DNA of 64,000 nt from Eledone cirrhosa (taxonomy: Eukaryota). This document shows, in pieces, positions 27,663-59,838 of the stretch (positions within the stretch are counted from its first letter, which is position 1; every line of letters starts with the position of its first letter). The notes under the pieces were generated by a model. It worked only from the letters and a program-made list of their open reading frames with translations, had not been told where the DNA came from and did no database searches. The DNA lies in contig OZ024744.1 in the NCBI GenBank assembly GCA_964016885.1, positions 92,070,001 to 92,134,000 of the forward strand, written 5' to 3'. The position numbers were made by a program, and so were the translations under genes.

Positions 27663-27713
<51 letters not shown>

Positions 27714-27815
27714 AAATGAAAAAAAAAACGAGACGTCCTGCACGAGTGAAACTATAAGGAAAAAGATGAAGTCGAAAATGCAACTGGAGTCTTTTTAAGA
27801 ATATTTATTTGGTTC

Positions 27816-27851
27816 CTTTACCGGTTTCGCAGTTCTTGTGCTTTTCAAAAG
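27816..27851 (-). ncRNA. Minimal hammerhead, U3-A8 core variant
   Basis: CTT-TTGAAAA-GCA CAAGAAC TGC-GAAA-CCGG-TA-AAG. Confidence 0.7.
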
Positions 27852-27907
27852 TAGAATTGAGATGGAGGGTTTGTGGTTTTTGTCGCATATATATATACAA
27901 TATATTA

Positions 27908-30900
27908 ATAAATGGAAACTATATTTATAAAACCATATTTATTTTATTATACATATTTCAAGGGCAACCAAGGCAAATTATGGTGCGCTTTCATCAGATA
28001 AAATACAGATTTGTTTTATAAATAAATATTGACATACCCGGAAAAAAAGACAACCTTAACGGTTGGAGCTTCCTGGATAGTGGAGATATTAGATTTATTG
28101 AGGGTGTTACAAAATTATGAGTGAGTATGCAAATGAGTGTCCGAAAGGTTGAAAATACTTTACATAGGAAAATACCGGAGATGACCGGTGGTTTATATCG
28201 TGACGATATGCTATTACTTATTGAAAATAATAATTGTTTCTACTTTAGGCACAAGGCCAGCAATTATCCAGTACATTACTGGTACTTTATTTTATCGACC
28301 CCGTAAGGATGAAAGGCAAATAATAATTGTGAAATAAATAGGAAAAGAAAAGAAATTATACAACTTTTTAATAGCGTTAATCTTAAAGTAGAAGTAGAGA
28401 ATAATTATAAAATAGTTAATTCTTTAGATGTAACTTTAAACCTTAACACTGGTCTTTATTATCCATTTCATAAAAGAAATGAGAATTTAAACTATGTTAA
28501 CTTTAATTCCAATCACCCCAGATCCGTTGAAAACACTATTGTAAATTCTGTGCAGCAACGTATTTTTAGAATTTCAGCTAATAAAAAATATTTGAAGATA
28601 AGGCACAATATTATAACGAAGCGTTAGGTAGAGCAGGCTATAGCAATAAAATTAAATACTTTGATAATAAGGATGTGCCAACTAACCATAACTATAAATA
28701 TTATAATAGAAAACCTTACACTAACTCGAAAACCAAAAGAAAAAATAGAACTAGAAATATATTATGGTTCGCTCCCCCTTTCTCATTAAGTATTAAAACT
28801 CCTATTGCTAAATTATTCTTTAAAGCTCTAGATAGGTGCTTTCCTAGGACACACAGGTATTACTCAATATTTAATAGACATACTATTAAACTCTCATATT
28901 CCACCACTATGAATTTAGCGCAGAATATTAATAGAATGAATAATAGAAACTTAAAACCTAACCAGAATAGCATTAATACCTCTAGCAATATCCAATATAA
29001 TGTTACGGCTCCCAATAATATAAATTTAGATAAATGTAATTGTAGAAATAAATCTAACTGTCCTCTAAATAATAATTGTTTAGTTAAAAATATATTATAC
29101 AATTGTAATGTCAAAACTCCTGTGTCGGCTCTACTCCCACAGACTTCAAATCTCGTTTTAATAACCATAAATGTTCTTTTACGAATATTGGTAAAAAATC
29201 TTCAACTTCTCTTTCTAACTTATTATGGGATTTGAAATCCAAGAACATTAACTATTCTTTACTTTGGAAAATTATTTCCAAAGCTCCTTCATACACGGCT
29301 TTATCCCAAAATTGCTCCCTTTGTGCTGAAGAAATATTCTTTATACTAAAAAGTAAGAACTCTATTAATTTGCGAAATAATTTATTCAGTTCCTGCAAAC
29401 ATCGTTTAAACTCAACTTTTAAATATATATATAAAATGTAATATATGATTTATCTCTTTTACATAATGTCTTCTATATCTATATATGATTCATATATTTA
29501 ATTTACTTTCTATTATCTCTACTTCACATATATACTATTACATCTATCGATAGATTATAACATTTCTTTATATGACTGCTTGAAACTCCTTTAAGGAAAA
29601 TTTTTTCTTGAAAAACTTACGGAAGGTTTTAAGAAAATCTTTTGAAAATTCCTTTGAAAGATATAGAAAAAACATTATTTTCATACCTTCCAATATTTTT
29701 ATATTGTTATATTTTTATATTATATTTTCAAACGTTTTCAATATATATATCCAAATGTTTATATATATGTGGAAAAATATGATTTTTTTTATATATATGT
29801 GGAGTAACCTATGGTTTATGCTTTAAATATATTCTTAAGATAAATTTTTTTAATGTTTTAACTTTATAGCAAGTAAATTTATGACTTCATATAAAATAAC
29901 ATATGGTTCATATTTTAATTATATTCTTAAGATAAAATTTTTTAACTTTTTAACTTTATAATATTTAATCCTTAGAGCCATCTGAGTTCTTAAAAAATCA
30001 CTTCTAACTTCCTTTACACTTCCTTACTGTTTTTATAATATAACTAAGTGGTTATTCTTTTGTAAACTCTCGAAAATCTTTCATAAATTTAGAATTATTT
30101 GAATGTTTAAAATTTTTGACTTACAACTTTTAATAAAATAAACTATACTAGATTTGCTCTAATGTAAAATAATATATATTTATTGAAATAATTTATAATC
30201 CTTAACATACACATTTAAACTAATTATTAAATTATTAAATTAAATCTTTAATATTAAGGTAAATTTTGATCTTTAATTTTGATTTCTAATTTTTTAATTT
30301 TAATTTAATTTTAATCTAATTTTTCAACCTATCATTATAAATATTATAATCAAAACATAATGCATCCTGCATTATAAATATTATTCTTCCACGTTATTCT
30401 CATTTCTTAATTTCTTCTCACTTAAATATACTTACGCTGTGTATTTATCCTTTGAAACTCATCTCTTCATGCACGCTATTTTCACTGTCAATATATATAA
30501 TCGTTCTTTCTTTCCTCTTCTATCTTTCTTATTTCTTCTTTTTTTCTTATTTCTTTTTTTCTCTCTCTCCCTCACATATCACCTTCTTCCAACAGTTTAA
30601 TTTAAATAAACCGTTATCTTTTCAACCTTTCGGACACTCATTTGTATACTCACTCATAATTTTGTATCACCCTCAATAAATCTAATATCTCCACTATCCA
30701 GGAAGCTCCAACCGTTAAGGTTGTCTTTTTTTCCGGGTATGTCAATATTTATTTATAAAACAAATCTGTATTTTATCTGATGACAGCGCACCATAATTTG
30801 CCTTGGTTGCCCTTGAAATATGTATAATAAAATAAATATGGTTTTATAAATATAGTTTCCATTTCGGTGGATTGGCAGTATCGGTAGAGGGTCGGACGCC

Positions 30901-32974: not shown

Positions 32975-35900
32975 TATAAGATCAAAAGATGGTTAAAGGA
33001 GTTCCATGTATTTTATTATGCGCATTTCAAAAACAAACATCATCATGCAATAATATTTGTGTTTTCATCAGATAAAACAGGAGAACATGATATGAAGGCT
33101 AAAAAACACCTGTGGACAGTGCAGTTTTAAATCAACATATGAAAAGTGGTTTTAGATTGATGTGTGATATTGGGAAAAATATTTTATTTAGAGAGGGGGG
33201 GTGGAAAGGATGAAAAGGGAAGGAGATGAGAGGGAGAGATGGGTGATAGAGAGAAAGAGATAGTTTTTATAACAGAGAGTAGATATATAGTGTTACATAG
33301 AGAGGTTGAAAACCGTTGGAAGATAATGTATAAATTAAAAATTTTGAAAATTAACGAAGGGAGGATATGTACGAGGAAAAAAAATATTTTATTTAGGGAT
33401 TGGGGGGGAAGGATGAAAAAAGGGGGAGGAGATGAGAGTGAAGGTGGAGAGGGAGAGATGGGTGATAGAGAGAAAGAGATAGTTTTTATAACTGAGAAAA
33501 AGATATATTGTTTTAACATAGAGAGGTTGGGAACCGTTGGAAGATAATGTATAAATTAAAGGAATTTGAAAAAAAATAACGAAGGGAATTTATGTATGAA
33601 GATAGAGAGAAAAAAATAATAATTGTGGATGAATATTCTAACGTCAAAAAAAGAAATGTATGTATTGTGGCAATTTCAAAATTAACGAAGAGAAAAATTA
33701 TTGAGGTTTGTGTGTAGAAGGATTTGAGAAGAAATGTGAAGTTAAAGTTTGTATATTGAAAGGATTGATAATATATGCGAATAAAGAGTTAATATGTATT
33801 AATAATGAGTTCGTTGATGGGGAGAAAAAAATAATAAATTAAGGATGAAATTGAGATTAAAAAAATTTATGATAGAGAGAAAAAATAATAATGATTGCGG
33901 ATGAATATTCAAACGTCAAAAACAAGAAATGTATGTTATGATTTTTATAAGGTGAAGATAGAATGAGGGTAATGAGTAAACAAGTATTATCGAGTGTATA
34001 ATGCCCTTTAAAGTAAGGTAGATGGGTATATTTTAAAGAGGTGTATGTATAAGTGCCTTTGAGAAAAGATTCTAAATTGATAAAGAATTGAATATTAACT
34101 GTATACCTTGTGAAAAGTTCTATGGAATTTATGCAGGCAGATAGAAAACAAATCTGTACGGCTGTTTATTATAGAATCTAGGTTAGAGATAATGGTAAAT
34201 TTTTCATTTAGGCAGAGATTACAGATTTTAGATAGAGAGCTGTTCAAGTATGAGGATGCAGAAGAAATCTTCTTCCAAAAGATGGTATATTTAATGTTTT
34301 TGTCTTTTAAGGGCCATATGAGTTCTGAGAGAGCAGTGTTGGTTCTTTTAAGTTTGTATTTGAAAGATGAATGATGATTATAGAGACGAGCTTTAAAAGA
34401 GGTGGAAGTGGAGCCAAAATAGGTGAAGGAATTGGTGCTAGTTATAATTTTACATTCATAAATTAAGTTTTTATCGAGACAATGGTTGTTGAGAGGACAT
34501 TTATTTTTAATGCGGCAGTTGCAATTAGAGAGATTATTAATGAGTGATCTAGTGTTATCTATAGAAGGAATTGGATTGGAGAAGTTGTTTGCGATAGGAA
34601 TAATAGGAATAATAGTTTCTTGATTTAGAGTTGGATTATGAACATTTAGCGAAGTTGTGTTTGACGTTGTATTTGGGTTTACAGAAGTTAGCCTAGGGTT
34701 TACAATGACGTCGGGAGTACTATTACTGTTATTATGAAATTCAATATTGGAAGGAAGAGATTTAGTATTTAGTATTTTATTGTTGTGTTTAGAGATGATG
34801 TTGGAAATATTGGAGGATGTAGAATACGAAAATTTGATGGTGTGTTTGTTAAATATTTTACTATAGATATGTGAGGGAGGGAAGCATTTATTTAAGGCAC
34901 TAAAAAAATAATTTAGGAATATTGTTATTAATAGAGATGGAGAAAGGAGCATTATACCAGATTATGTTTTTGTATCTAGGTCTTTTATTAAAATTATTGG
35001 AATGGTCATGATTAATTATTCTACTGTAAGTTTTACTAGAATTTGTTTCTTTACTATATTTGATTTTATCTGGATAGCCGGCTTTAGAAAGTGCGTTATT
35101 ATAGTAATTGGCGTTAGCATCAAATATGTTTTTATTAGAAGATATGTTAGATATTCTTTTTCCAATATTATTAACTATAGCATTCTTGATATTGGTAGGA
35201 TGGTTAGATTTAAAGTTAACATAATTAAGGTTCTCATTGTTTTTATGGTAAGGGTAATATAGGCCAGTGTCAAGATTAAGAGATACATCCAAGAAATTAG
35301 CTAGTTTGATACTATTATCAAATTCAATTTTTAGGTTATGTTGGTTAAAGAGATTACGTATATTGTTCTTAATAATATTAAGGTTAACTATATTGCAATT
35401 TAGGATAGTAAAGAGTCCATCGTCACGATAAATTCCACCGCGAAGTTGAGGAATTTTCCGACTCAAAGAGTTCAAAATGAAGATACCAATTAAATCAGTC
35501 AATTGGGATGAATCGGATGCTCCCATTGTGATGTCGAAGTTGTTAGAGGTATCGGCTCTGGTCCAATATTCGTTGTTGAACTCTAGGATGGTTTTACGTG
35601 CGGTGAGGATGATGTGAAGTTCATCTGTGGTGATGTCAGAATATTTAAGTGCGAAAGATAGAGCATTATTGAGAAGTGAAGGCGAAATGGAGGAATAGTA
35701 GCTGGCAATATCAAATTGAATAAATTTTAGTTTGTTTTTATTATCCAATTTGTTGAACCAGCCAATCACTTCAGAAGTAACAAACCATAAATTTAGGTTC
35801 AAAGAAGAGCAATTAGAACTAACCTGTGGGATAATTCTATCCAAGATGGCTTTACTAACAACCCCCAGATCGGATTTAGAGGGGGCGATTAATCTAACAG

Positions 35901-36450
35901 GTAGTTCAGTGCGAAAATTGTTTTTGTGATCCTTGAGATTTATCCTCGGAGTTCTTGGGAGGAATGGTTCGGTCTTTTTTTCAATGCCAAGTTTTGACAT
36001 AATCTCATAGGCTTCAAGGTTTATGCATTCTAAATTTTCATGGTTGGTTTTACGATACTTTTTCCTAAGTTCCTTTAGGATAAGGTTGTTATAATTATCC
36101 TTGGAAATACCATATAGGTTATTGGTTTTGTCAGAGTGGACTAAAACATCTTTTGAGGAATTTAGGTTAGAGATTGTGTTCTTGAGATTTACAAGGTGCT
36201 CTTGTCCTTTGTAAGGGTATCTCTTGAATTTAAGATTTTTTATTATTTTAGTTAATTCTTCCTCGAATTGTACTAGATTTTTGTTGGAAGGAGGATTTCG
36301 TCTAGAATTAAAAAGATGATCGAGGAAGTTATGTTCTTTGGTATGAAAGTTCCCTTTTAGGCGCTGGTCATAGAAATAGGCTGTCCATCTAAGTCTTCTT
36401 ACGAAGGAGTCAGTTTTTTCAATAAGAAGTTTGGTGAATTCAGATTTACA
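32970..36450 (-). mobile_element. Penelope-like element family B, near full-length, one frameshift (~34905), 3' hammerhead 33011-33077
   Basis: RT (QFDIASYY, ITMGA, GIYRDD, NFLDV) plus CNC-x5-C and GIY-YIG (IYECKI...YFGST..FKARLYNH), CNLC, CLH; HHR GAAA-TGCGCA-TA. Confidence 0.95.
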
Positions 36451-36479
36451 TATATATATATATACATATACATACATAT

Positions 36480-36710
36480 ATATGGTGGCTGCCAACTCGT
36501 TTTCGAGTACGGCCACTACTTTATATCCATGTAGAACTCCTACCGATTCGCTGAACAAATGTAACTTTAGTCCAGCCAGCGACTTGAAAACTCTGGTACA
36601 AACACTACACTTGTGACAATTATTGACACATAGTGCTAGGCCCATGGTACCATGTGACGACAAGTGCAGAGAGATCTCCAGATACAAAGCAATACCTGTG
36701 CCGTGAAGCT
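36480..36710 (-). pseudogene. Probable RTE 3'-end fragment with C2H2-like finger
   Basis: CSVCTRVFKSLAGLKLH ending GCAGCCACC-(TA)n. Confidence 0.5.
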
Positions 36711-36935
36711 TATATATATATACACATACATACACTCATACATACACACGCGCACACATATATACACACATATATGTGTATATAAATACACACAAACACA
36801 TATATACATACGCACATAAATATCAACCCATCCATACATACAAATACATATATACAACCACACACACATATATACACACATACATACACATAGAAACATA
36901 AATATAAATACATATACATACACACATATACATAC

Positions 36936-47515: not shown

Positions 47516-50200
47516 TGTACAGCCAGCGGAAATAACATCTGTGAAATAAACAGCTCCATCTATCTGCTTAGCTAGCTACCTCACCGTGAAACAAACAACT
47601 CTTAAAGCCACCAAAATAAAACGCCTACGCAGCGGCTAAACATCAAACGATTATTTTTGTATAAATAGAGTGATTCCAAACACTTTCGCCAGTCGACCTT
47701 TGGCAGAATCAGCTAGCGTATCGTTGTTCCTCTCCTCTGCCACGCTTATCACTCACACACACCTTGTACCTCTGTATCGTCGCTTCATGTATGAAAACAA
47801 ATAGCTGACCGAAACTACATCTCTCGCTTTGCTCGTACTTTCAACTTGCGCTTTCGTCTATTCATCCTTATCGTATGAGACAACAGTCTTTTTAAGGGCT
47901 ACCCTCAGATCCGATCAGACCGTATGCGATAACAGTCCTTTTAAGGGATATTCTCGGATCTGATCAGAAGTAGTGACAAGACTGACTAACCACGTTGCTA
48001 CAATTGGTGACCCCGACGTGATTCGAACACGCAACCAGACATCATCCTAACAAGATACCAGCATGGACATGTCACAACCAACGTCAGAGGCCGAGATTTC
48101 AGAGTTGCGGGCTATGATCCGAGAGCGGATTGGTCAAATTAAAGCCCTCTCAAATCAAGTAGAGAACCTGACCTTTCAAACACACCGGCGACGCAACAAC
48201 AGTCGATCCAGGCCTTTTCACAGTCGAAGATCCAGAAGTCCCAGTCAAAATCGTGTGTCTGGCAACCTCTGCTGGTATCACACAGAATTCGGCGCACAGG
48301 CATCTAAGTGTAGAGCCCCGTGCTCTTTCCAGAATACCACCCAGGGAAACGGGCAAACCAGGGCCTAGCGACGACATTCACCCCTGGTACTGAGAAGAAA
48401 AGTCGTCTATTTTTTATCAACGACCAAGCGACAGGCATCCGTTACCTCGTGGATACAGGAGCCCAGGTTAGTGTTATTCCTGTTTCACTAGTCTCGGGCA
48501 AAAGATATCTAACACCGTCCTTTCTGCAGGCAGTGAACCGATCGTCAATTCCGACTTTCGGGGCGAAATCACTAACCCTCAATTTAGGCCTGAGGCGTCG
48601 TTTTCAATGGGTGTTTGTCATGGCAGACCTGCCGCCCCTTATCTTAGGAGCCGATTTTCTCCACCACTTCAACCTTCTGGTGGACATGAAGAACCGGAGG
48701 CTTATTGACACCACCACAAACCTCACTGTGAGAGGTATATTTACGACGCAATCCAGTGAGCCCTGTAATTTGCCAGTCAGAGCCTTCGCGGTACAACGGC
48801 ATTCTCCAGAAATACCCAGACATCACTCGCCCGGTATTTAAGGATGGTCCCATTAAGCATAGTCGCACGCTCCACATCGAGAGAAGGGGACCACCCACAG
48901 CTGCCAGACCAAGGAGACTGCCTCCAGACCGATTGAGAATCGTCAAACAGGAGTTTCAACACATGCTGGACCTCGGAATCATTCGCCAGCAACTGGTCTG
49001 CACCCCTACACCTTGTTCCTAAAAAAACGAGAATGATTGGCGACCATGTGGGGATTATCGTGCACTCAACAATTCTATAGTACCCGATAATTACCCTGTA
49101 CCTCACTTGCACGACTTTTCTGCCTCTCTGCAAGGCGCGCGCATCTTTTCCAAGATAGATTTGGTACGGGCATATAACCAGATACCTATGGAGCCTGCAG
49201 ATATTCCGAAGACCGCAATCACAACACCGTTCGGTTTATTTGAATTCTTGCGAATGCCGTTCGGTCTGCGCAATGCTGCACAAACTTTCCACGGTTTATT
49301 GACACCGTGTTACGTGATCTACCCTTTGTATACGCGTATATCGACGACGTGCTGGTAGCAAGTACTTCCGAGCAAGAACACGAGAAGCACTTAGATCTTC
49401 TTTTCCAACGTTTGGACGAGTACGGTATTATCATCAACTCCAGCAAGTGCCTTCTCGGCGTTCCTTCACTGTCCTTTCTCGGGCACATCATTGATAAAGA
49501 CGGCATTCGTCCACTTCCCGAGAAAGTAAAAGCTATCCGCAATTTTCCCGCACCTACATCACTTCGGAAACTGCGTGAATTCCTCGGTTTGGTGAATTTT
49601 TATAGGCGTTTCATCCCTCATTGTGCCGACGCAACCAGACTCCTTACGGACCTTCTTCGCAACCGGACTCGCAAAAACGAAGAGATCACTCTGAACGAGG
49701 AAGAATTAACATCTTTTAACCGCCTGAAGGAAATGTTGGCAAACGCTTCCATGCTCGTTTTCCCCAGATCTGGCGCTCCTCTTTCGCTGCTAGTGGACGC
49801 ATCAGACACGGGGGTTGGAGGTGTTTTACAACAACATGTCGACGGCGTTTGGCAACCCTTATCCTTCTTTTCTAAGCGGTTGCAACCTGCAGAAACCAAA
49901 TACAGAACGTTTAGCCGCGAACTCTTGGCAACCCACCTTTCGGTTAAACATTTTCGTCACATGCTCAAAGGATCGGATTTCGCGATCTACAAGGACCATA
50001 AACCACTAGTTTACGCATTCCGTACCAAACCTGATCGACATTTACCGAGAGAACTCCGACACCTGGATTTTGTCTCCCAATATTCAACTGATATTCGGCA
50101 TATCAAGGGATCAGACAACGTAGCAGCCGACGCCCTGTCCCGAACCCAGCTGAACATAATACATGCGCATTCAGGCTTCGACCTTCAACAGATCGCAGCT
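47516..50200 (+). mobile_element. Ty3/Gypsy LTR retrotransposon, CsRn1-like, decayed (5' LTR 47516-48002; no integrase or 3' LTR)
   Basis: TG..CA LTR, tRNA-Trp PBS, gag CWYH..C..PC (CHCC), GGGAAAC slip site at 48344, protease LVDTGA, RT YIDD, RNase H DAS..ADALSR. Confidence 0.92.
48005..48036 (+). promoter_or_regulatory. Primer-binding site complementary to tRNA-Trp (32 nt)
   Basis: TGGTGACCCCGACGTGATTCGAACACGCAACC. Confidence 0.85.
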
Positions 50201-50580
50201 TTGATACTACTCAATTTCTACAAGTTTTTTCTATTTTCAACTTATTACCCTGTAATTGTAAGATAGCATTGTGATTTTTCTTTTTTCATTTCTCACTATC
50301 TAATTTTATATATTTTTTATTTCTTTCTATTATCTTTTATTATCTCCTACTCTCATTCGATTTACCTATTCTATAACCTCCCTCCTCCACTTCATACACT
50401 ATCCTTAGAATCTGCTGTATACATATGACTTTCAATGCTTGACCGCTCCACTCACTCCCCTATTGTTCTATAGGCAAGTTCAGCCACCCCTACCTCCCAC
50501 CAAATGCCATGATAGACTTATTTGTGTTTGCAACAAATTTTAACCAATCCTCCTGACAACTACAATCATCCCATATAAGG

Positions 50581-50688
50581 AAGTACCCCCTTGACAAGTT
50601 CGGCTATTTATTCACCAGGCTAAAAATTCTAATTTAGTCCAGAAATAGTCGTCGAAACGGCTTGAGCTCTGCCGTCGGAGTCATACTT
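50581..50688 (+). ncRNA. Hammerhead, U3-A8 core variant, branched helix II
   Basis: AAGTACCCCC-TTGACAA-G..CGGCTATTT...AAATAGTCGTC-GAAA-CGGC..GCCG-TC-GGAGTCATACTT. Confidence 0.65.
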
Positions 50689-50691
50689 TTT

Positions 50692-50772
<81 letters not shown>

Positions 50773-50779
50773 TTAAAAT

Positions 50780-52243
50780 ATATATATACATTTAAAATAT
50801 ATGATAAACACGAAATGTGTTTACATTGCAACAGACAAAGTTAGCTATTAATGAAATAAACTAATTAAAGTGAATACAATTTGTCTGTCGCGATATAAGT
50901 CAATAAAGACAAGATTATATTGGCAACGGCCATGATTCCTGGACAGATTCAGATTTCAAAATTCAAACCTGTTCTGTAGACGAATTTGAACCTCGAAACC
51001 TAAATAAGTTTCGCAACGGTGGTATGTAAATTGAAAAATAAAGAGAATCGAAATGGAATAGAAATAAAAAAGTGAAATATCCAAATCTTCTGTGCTTATC
51101 AACTGGAATCCAGTAAAATTAGTATATCTCACATCAAAAATTTTGCAGGTCTGACTACACGTGTGTAGGCAGGCCAAAACTAGCCGTCCCACATTCACGG
51201 TGCTAGAAATAACAGCCGCTTATGCAGGATTAAGGATCAGCTCTACAATAAAGGAGCCATACATTATATTATATTTTGAGAATAAACTCTCAGTCGTTTA
51301 CAATAATTAAGCTCCAGGAAAAGGGGCTCTTCCGAGCAGTTAAATACATTTAAAATATATGATAAACACGAAATGTGTTTACATTGCAACAGACAAAGTT
51401 AGCTATTAATGAAATACAATTTGTCTGTCTCGATATAAGTCAATAAAGACAAGCTTATATTGGCAACGGCCATGATTCCTGGACAGATTCAGATTTCAAA
51501 ATTCAAACCTGTTCTGTAGACGAATTTGAACCTCGAAACCTAAATAAGTTTCGCAACGGTGGAATGTAAATTGAAAAATAAAGAGAATCGAAATGGAATA
51601 GAAATAAAAAAGTGAAATATCCAAATCTTCTGTGCTTATCAACAGGAATCCAGTAAAATTAGTATATCTCACATCTCAAAATATAATATAATGTATGGCT
51701 CCTTTATTGTAGAGCTGATCCTTAATCCTGCATAAGCGGCTGTTATTTCTAGCACCGTGAATGTGGGACGGCTAGTTTTGGCCTGCCTACACACGTGTAG
51801 TCAGACCTGCAAAATTTTTGATGTGAGATATACTAATTTTACTGGATTCCTGTTGATAAGCACAGAAGATTTGGATATTTTACTTTTTTATTTCTATTCC
51901 ATTTCGATTCTCTTTATTTTTCAATTCACATTCCACCGTTGCGAAACTTATTTAGGTTTCGAGGTTCAAATTCGTCTACAGAACAGGTTTGAATTTTGAA
52001 ATCTGAATCTGTCCAGGAATCATGGCCGTTGCCAATATAAGCTTGTCTTTATTGACTTATATCGAGACAGACAAATTGTATTCACTTTAATTAGTTTATT
52101 TCATTAATAGCTAACTTTGTCTGTTGCAATGTAAACACATTTCGTGTTTATCATATATTTTAAATGTATTTAACTGCTCGGAAGAGCCCCTTTTCCTGGA
52201 GCTTAATTATTGTAAACGACTGAGAGTTTATTCTCAAAATATA

Positions 52244-52248
<5 letters not shown>
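50780..52248. repeat. Tandem (540-nt period) plus inverted repeat carrying three large U3-A8 hammerheads
   Basis: Copies at 50934-51110 (minus), 51474-51650 (minus) and 51845-52021 (plus). Confidence 0.85.

Positions 52249-52307
<59 letters not shown>

Positions 52308-55869: not shown

Positions 55870-59838
<3,969 letters not shown>

Follow-up and report, generated by a model that had tools for sequence, protein, structure and literature searches.

Hammerhead cores with U3-A8 pairs and an amplified C3·A8 state in mobile elements of Eledone cirrhosa

Replacement of the C3-G8 core pair of hammerhead ribozymes by U3-A8 is an ordinary change that has already been published. In several natural hammerheads C3-G8 covaries to U3-A8, and the variant is reported to be active in vitro (Perreault et al. 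2011, PMC3088659). A high-copy case is provided by the Cercyon Penelope-like elements of Schistosoma mansoni, whose minimal U3-A8 hammerheads gave about 1,300 matches (Cervera and De la Peña 2014, PMC4209133). Self-cleavage of tandem transcripts was proposed there as the role of Penelope-like hammerheads, and the minimal forms cleaved poorly in vitro (PMC4209133). The Hydra clade of Penelope-like elements is characterized by RWK and DKT motifs, a CxCX5C linker, a C-terminal endonuclease, a short single ORF and a (TA)n target; its published hammerhead rows came from a canonical descriptor blind to other cores, and Naiad elements are described in the cited portion of the same source as having no canonical hammerheads (Craig et al. 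2021, PMC8557442). Outside this group, metazoan non-LTR retrozymes are short, low-GC repeats that lack an ORF, hold a single type-I hammerhead in each unit and frequently occur in tandem (Cervera and de la Peña 2020, PMC7229834; Li et al., preprint 10.64898/2026.07.22.740005).

Here, we analyzed a 64-kb stretch of the Eledone cirrhosa genome (the window) together with genome-wide copies of three hammerhead groups found in it, referred to as family A, lineage B and family C. As in Cercyon, type-I hammerheads with U3-A8 occur as high-copy families in Penelope-like terminal repeats, and family A also shares with Cercyon a palindromic helix III and a need for dimerization, the latter predicted in A. 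In contrast to Cercyon, the swap is found here in a Neptune/Nematis-like element, a Hydra element and a retrozyme-like repeat, the hammerheads of B and C carry long hairpin helices, and one lineage includes an amplified C3·A8 state, which is not described in the cited part of the Cercyon work (PMC4209133). The variants of Perreault et al. are scattered examples, and the corresponding part of that paper describes neither a within-lineage series nor a mismatch stage. What is new is the series in lineage B with its amplified C3·A8 stage; an amplified state of this kind was not found described in open-licence PubMed Central and bioRxiv texts and a minority of their supplements. The series bears on whether Penelope-like elements depend on hammerhead cleavage for their mobility and on how a paired change crosses an unpaired intermediate, and it offers natural, age-ordered variants one core base apart.

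Hammerhead cores in the window and the chance level

The host genome is 3.0 Gb in size, has a GC content of about 33% and contains many (TA)n microsatellites. Fragments of Penelope-like elements are numerous within the window, and a first look with the reverse transcriptase (RT) segment of one of them as the query returned 47,061 candidates genome-wide. The preliminary description had placed a TTGANAA heptamer at the exact core position of three hammerheads, and the full helix layouts bear this out. The family A motif is a minimal type-I hammerhead on the minus strand (27816..27851; U3 at 27848, A8 at 27843), and those of lineage B (50587..50680; U3 at 50591, A8 at 50596) and family C (51845..52021; U3 at 51853, A8 at 51858) lie on the plus strand. 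In each, the heptamer sits between helix I and helix II in a type-I layout with helix I open, the core elements U4 G5 A6 N7, A9, G12 A13 A14, A15.1-U16.1 and H17 are present around the three helices, and the Watson-Crick 3-8 pair is U-A. In the B and C alignments 85% and 96.5% of cells, respectively, were paired, compared with at most 58% once the partners were slid.

The heptamer alone says little, as it occurs 83 times in the window. With the helices required and positions 3 and 8 left free, 664 kb of DNA (the window and 60 stretches of 10 kb) yielded 67 matches, namely 42 C-G, 10 U-A, 3 C-A and 12 others, while five shuffles gave 86 matches in total, including 1 C-G, 9 U-A and 4 C-A. Of 25 cores in the window, 5 were U3-A8 and 20 were C3-G8 (one with A9 changed). 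The latter, at 157, 1356, 16186, 16566, 18585, 27997, 30777, 32771, 33071, 37793, 39841, 40885, 41703, 44102, 44830, 47018, 55058, 55140, 55969 and 59486, belong to several families and often form inverted pairs. In 1.7 Mb of DNA (overlaps included), a sample enriched for A, B and C by the design of the search, there were 16 real multi-copy clusters, of which 11 were C3-G8, 4 U3-A8 and 1 mixed, and none was fixed for any other 3-8 combination. Two of an original 18 clusters had been dropped, one consisting of inverted B fragments and the other of a minisatellite of about 27 bp (L064, 1768-3022) that contains TTGAAAA and accounted for 19 false descriptor matches. Additional U3-A8 hammerheads of other families were seen in L200 (minus strand, 1917) and L112 (plus strand, 6641), in L294 (minus strand, 783 and 1374) and in L322 (minus strand, 2240). 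A lone well-formed hammerhead in L113 (plus strand, 4763) carries C3·A8 with C at N7 and possibly represents CpG decay of a canonical core. The window also holds a young Hydra-type family on the minus strand (56999-59215 and 34095-36735), whose best 150 RT matches are 97-100% identical; many of these matches are in open frames of about 820 amino acids, and the hammerhead of the family is canonical C3-G8.

To establish the state of each family, we relied on genome-wide counts of exact patterns with positions 3, 7 and 8 left free, because best-hit copy rows overlap and are biased toward the query; reversed-pattern controls gave zero matches each time. Family A yielded 12,775 matches, with U3-A8 in all of the first 100 listed; C3 was present in 40 of the 12,775 (0.3%) and G8 in none of these 40. 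Family C gave 413 matches, again with U3-A8 in each of the first 100 listed, and the window's own subfamily of B gave 575, with U3-A8 in 98 of the first 100 listed. The best-hit rows agreed (U3 in 43/43 and A8 in 42/43 for A, both bases in 41/41 for B and in 50/50 for C). U3-A8 is thus the state of the family, and not a product of decay, in A, in C and in B's own subfamily. Fixation across a family reflects copying of master elements and is not by itself a sign of selection.

These counts leave practically no room for the view that the motifs match by chance or are random double mutants within families with a CTGANGA consensus. The abundance of TTGANAA in the window would be in its favor, as would the lack of an Rfam hammerhead model among the 150 of 204 window matches listed and among the 18 of 18 for two loci. 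However, hundreds to thousands of exact family matches carry both U3 and A8 and the controls carry none, and the C3 copies of A are devoid of G8.

Families A and C

The family A hammerhead consists of a 3-bp helix I, a 3-bp helix II and a palindromic helix III, with GUA as the cleavage triplet. It lies within the 5′-truncated 3′ end of a Penelope-like element (27712..27888, minus strand) that ends at a (TA)n run (27664-27711). At 8 loci, A hammerheads were found approximately 0.9-1.4 kb downstream of an ORF of one and the same family encoding RT plus a GIY-YIG endonuclease. Pfam detected GIY-YIG above and RVT_1 just under the cut-off, the CX4CxxC linker and the CCHH-type endonuclease motifs are present, and a Hydra-type query did not match this ORF. 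From these motifs we assign A to a Neptune/Nematis-like type, a label under which Neptune and Nematis are not told apart. A neighboring Hydra-type ORF (28154-29432) was considered as a partner of the A motif and rejected; the hammerheads on either side of this ORF, at 27997 and 30777, belong to one family and are C3-G8.

According to folding predictions, the A motif does not form a hammerhead as a monomer, and a dimer would be required, with the cut expected after position 27819. For the copy L090, the predicted energy was -26.1 kcal/mol for the dimer and -9.3 kcal/mol for the monomer. A copy with a 4-bp helix II was predicted to form a complete double hammerhead in the dimer fold; in the dimer fold of the window copy helix III alone pairs.

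Family C was found in an insertion flanked by (TA)n runs and without an ORF (50783..52254), made up of two tandem minus-strand units with cores 540 bp apart and an inverted partial unit. The hammerhead at 51845..52021 has an 8-bp helix I, an 83-nt helix II arm, a 65-nt hairpin helix III arm and GUC. Two others lie on the minus strand, one at 51474..51650 (U3 at 51642) and one at 50934..51110 (U3 at 51102), in which one helix-I pair is broken. C is predicted to fold as a hammerhead three-way junction (z of -3.14). Of 12 locus rows, among which overlapping loci were counted, 10 had same-strand cores spaced by 540-558 bp and 2 were duplications of about 2.5 kb. These features suggest that C is a retrozyme-like, ORF-less unit of about 550 bp with one type-I hammerhead each, arranged in tandem or inverted between (TA)n runs. 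It thereby resembles the metazoan non-LTR retrozymes as portrayed in the cited portions of PMC7229834 and the preprint 10.64898/2026.07.22.740005, yet its unit is longer (540-558 bp versus the 150-450 bp described), its helix II arm and its helix III are very long, and its core is U3-A8. Candidate links of C to an ORF in L289 or L290 were rejected, as (TA)n or unrelated DNA lies between. Across copies, the helix II arm of C measures about 42, 57 or 83 nt with three closing pairs fixed (L260, L267, L276 and L289 versus 51860-51942 in the window).

Between C and A, the likeness amounts to 15 nt at the core (E of 4-8), and beyond these 15 nt no shared sequence of C with A or B was detectable among the comparison rows listed. 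The three groups had been called independent families. For A and B this holds, since their motifs place them in different Penelope-like clades and so point to at least two independent origins of U3-A8; C is neither tied to A nor proven separate.

Two amplified core states in lineage B

The lineage B hammerhead has a helix II that opens with a G-C pair followed by an internal loop and continues into a long arm, a hairpin helix III, GAAA at 50654-50657 and GUC at 50674-50676. A helix-I mismatch at 50679 is private to the window copy, which was for this reason missed by a strict helix scan. The motif is part of the 5′-truncated 3′ end of a Penelope-like element (50196..50692, plus strand; subfamily U-I) followed by (TA)n (50694-50788), and B copies in general terminate at (TA)n. 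The B hammerhead is located 0.7-1.3 kb downstream of a single 719-aa ORF that carries RW(K/R), with RWR here in place of RWK, DKT, the CxCX5C linker and a C-terminal endonuclease; a Pfam scan of the Hydra-type ORFs gave no match. The motifs, the single ORF, the (TA)n insertion and the 3′ hammerhead are those of the Hydra clade (PMC8557442), to which we assign B on its motifs rather than on a tree of named references. In the core, B departs from that clade, as all 26 of 26 published rows in File S2 are C3-G8, whereas B is C3·A8 and U3-A8. Adjoining the window copy are fragments with protease, RT and RNase H (48314-50266, plus strand), which from their motifs we take to be Ty3/gypsy-like; they were rejected as a part of B, a similar match being present at 1 of 29 other B loci.

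The wider B lineage comprised 5,749 genome-wide matches with positions 3, 7 and 8 free. C3·A8 accounted for 1,498 of them (26%), about 80 times the C3 rate of A. Given this 26% versus 0.3% in A, C3 in B was amplified and is not a decay product, and B thus possesses two amplified core states, C3·A8 and U3-A8. In contigs from run X1, which may be the source of the assembly, C at this position made up 25% of depth over 41 contigs. Runs X5 and X6 contained a few pieces at low depth, uninformative about other species, and no RNA run was listed. CpG decay was rejected as a source of the change from C3 to U3, since the C precedes a T. G8 was at background level, in 25 of 5,749 matches (8 with C3, 16 with U3 and 1 with A3). 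A looser canonical-core search ahead of the B helix III revealed no C3-G8 subfamily of B; of its 83 matches, 11 were true B copies and the remainder junctions with other DNA.

The preliminary description had regarded the double change from C3-G8 to U3-A8 as compensatory and as an argument for function. With G8 at background level, no double change is visible inside any family; what stands is a stepwise repair in B by way of C3·A8. The further step from compensation to function is weakened, since masters of three mismatch subfamilies transposed without the 3-8 pair while the remaining fold stayed conserved. A mismatch at 3-8 strongly slows hammerhead cleavage. The stepwise change through an amplified C3·A8 state supports selection for the pair, yet the pair was not strictly needed for transposition, and the unpaired C-A state is likely to have been the stepping stone to U3-A8.

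The reading that we consider probable is that the three motifs are type-I hammerheads, located 3′-terminally in two Penelope-like retroelements and one retrozyme-like repeat, with U3-A8 fixed in their masters, and that the core of B changed stepwise under selection for better self-cleavage. The hammerheads would likely cut the tandem transcript of the element, A acting as a dimer only and B and C being predicted to fold as monomers. In B, a first step from C3-G8 to C3·A8 may be supposed from the outgroup families; C3·A8 masters then gave rise to at least 1,498 copies in three subfamilies, and a C-to-U change at position 3 would have restored the pair, at least once by the tree and probably twice depending on the root. 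The likely driver would be selection on masters for better self-cleavage, with a weak mismatch ribozyme being tolerated. C3-G8 as the earlier state of B is suggested by the other Hydra families of the same genome, which are C3-G8, and by the 26 of 26 published rows; no such ancestor was seen among the genome copies.

Order of the changes and conservation of the fold in lineage B

We built trees from ORF DNA with the hammerhead excluded, using 29 of 142 copies with at least 600 ORF bases and, in a second tree, 42 of 162 copies with at least 330. In the 29-copy tree, 13 C3·A8 copies formed a grade between two U3-A8 clades of 9 and 7 copies (UFBoot of 100 and 100), and the 42-copy tree had the same shape. 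The U3-A8 clade that includes the window copy, U-I, marks one end of the grade; nested at the opposite end is U-II, a young U3-A8 clade with terminal branches of 0.002-0.015 in a FastTree protein tree (there, the placement of rows L336, L223p4214 and L330, which are partial or mixed projections, was left aside). Under any root outside this youngest clade, the tree implies a C-to-U restoration into U-II, that is, at least one. A second restoration, into U-I, would require a root in the C grade, and two gains are the likelier outcome. On either side of the core, the majority flanks differ between U-I and U-II, so that recombination could have moved the core only within a very short tract.

A root in the C grade is favored by the outgroup residues and by the higher divergence of the C3·A8 subfamily C1. 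Compared with 120 outgroup proteins, C1 was ancestral at 4 of 13 sites versus U-I and at 0 the other way (1 of the 4 depends on a single outgroup row), and at 3 of 10 sites versus C2 and again 0 the other way; C2 and U-II split 3 to 4. C1 had a divergence of 0.069 (23 copies), the highest among the well-sampled subfamilies, and one C3·A8 copy was sister to U-I in the 29-copy tree with a support of 99. These observations speak against the alternative, which we regard as unlikely, that B had U3-A8 from the start, that a master changed to C3·A8 and spread, and that U3 came back once, in U-II. The root is nevertheless soft, and part of the data suits such a loss and regain: U-I holds old copies (the terminal branch of L374 is 0.089 in the 42-copy tree), a 4-copy U3 group has a median divergence of 0.13, the local outgroups are divided, with position 513 and a few weak sites favoring U-I, and no outgroup of B was found closer than the nearest ones, which are at most 54% identical.

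Conservation was compared among the majority sequences of 10 B subfamilies. Variation was seen in 2 of the 38 core and stem columns but in 83 of the 174 flank and loop columns (p of 2.5e-7), and in 1 of 25 core and stem columns beyond the search anchor (p of 1.4e-5); in the three C3·A8 subfamilies alone, 0 of 38 core and stem columns varied versus 29 of 174 (p of 0.003), and 0 of 25 beyond the anchor (p of 0.029), all these p values being guides only because alignment columns are not independent. The fold of B was thus retained during the stage at which positions 3 and 8 were unpaired, and conservation of this kind is better evidence of constraint than fixation across a family. All 15 scored core columns were invariant over the 10 subfamilies, and the free N7 takes four states. 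Neutral C-to-T rates on the two repair branches were about 2-8% and 4-5% per C, which puts the chance of two position-3 hits by drift at roughly 0.1-0.4%.

Reverse transcriptase binding, and not catalysis, could also account for the conserved fold. If the fold were kept as a structural signal, cutting would be irrelevant and U3-A8 would stem from a bias toward C-to-T and G-to-A changes in a genome rich in AT, which we consider improbable. The good amplification of the mismatch masters, the GC content of about 33% and the success of Naiad elements without canonical hammerheads fit such a signal. So does the lack of helix covariation above shuffles, with no two-sided changes within B and 1 pair within C, whose score was reached by 203 of 500 shuffles, the copies being very close in both. 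Against the main reading, the folding energies of A and B, the youngest B subfamily included, were no better than those of shuffled sequences (z of 0.14 to -1.14). A mere structural signal is opposed by the 15 invariant columns beside a variable N7, the restriction of the 16 multi-copy clusters to C-G, U-A and one mixed case, and the low chance that drift hit position 3 twice.

Another possibility concerns the register of the mismatch core. CUGAGAA could have arisen by loss of N7 from a canonical bulged-A core, so that C3 paired with G7 throughout and the later U3 restored the normal register and freed N7. The pattern at N7 is suggestive only: of the first 100 C3·A8 matches listed, 94 have G there, as do 3 of 3 C3·A8 subfamilies, but the 7 U3 subfamilies show four states, and bulged-A cores exist in a Hydra family of the same genome. 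However, the lineage-level events are too few for the constancy of N7 within the C grade to be significant; moreover, no hammerhead with N7 deleted was found among the papers listed from the open-licence PubMed Central and bioRxiv literature, which concerned other RNAs, and families A and C would be left unexplained. All told, we give a shifted register little credence.

Returning to stepwise change under selection for self-cleavage, B could be read more specifically as a dated fossil series, in which C3·A8, or a shifted C3-G7, stayed competent through three successive masters and about 1,500 insertions before U3-A8 was repaired independently in two daughter lineages. This narrower reading is tentative, falling somewhat short of an even chance. 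The youngest lineage would also have repaired helix II, as the youngest B subfamily has gained a basal A-U pair in helix II and is predicted to fold into the hammerhead junction. Were C3·A8 catalytically dead, self-cleavage would be helpful to these elements yet optional; were it active, CUGAGAA would be a natural core missed by standard descriptors, and hammerhead censuses would undercount.

Several individual B insertions deserve mention. The old insertion L374 has U3·G8 in both of its repeats, and in L219 one repeat carries U3 and two carry C3. Many 5′-truncated copies (L302-L326) start within loop II, directly next to CUGANGA cores that belong to other families, and these junctions produce chimeric cores without a matching helix II.
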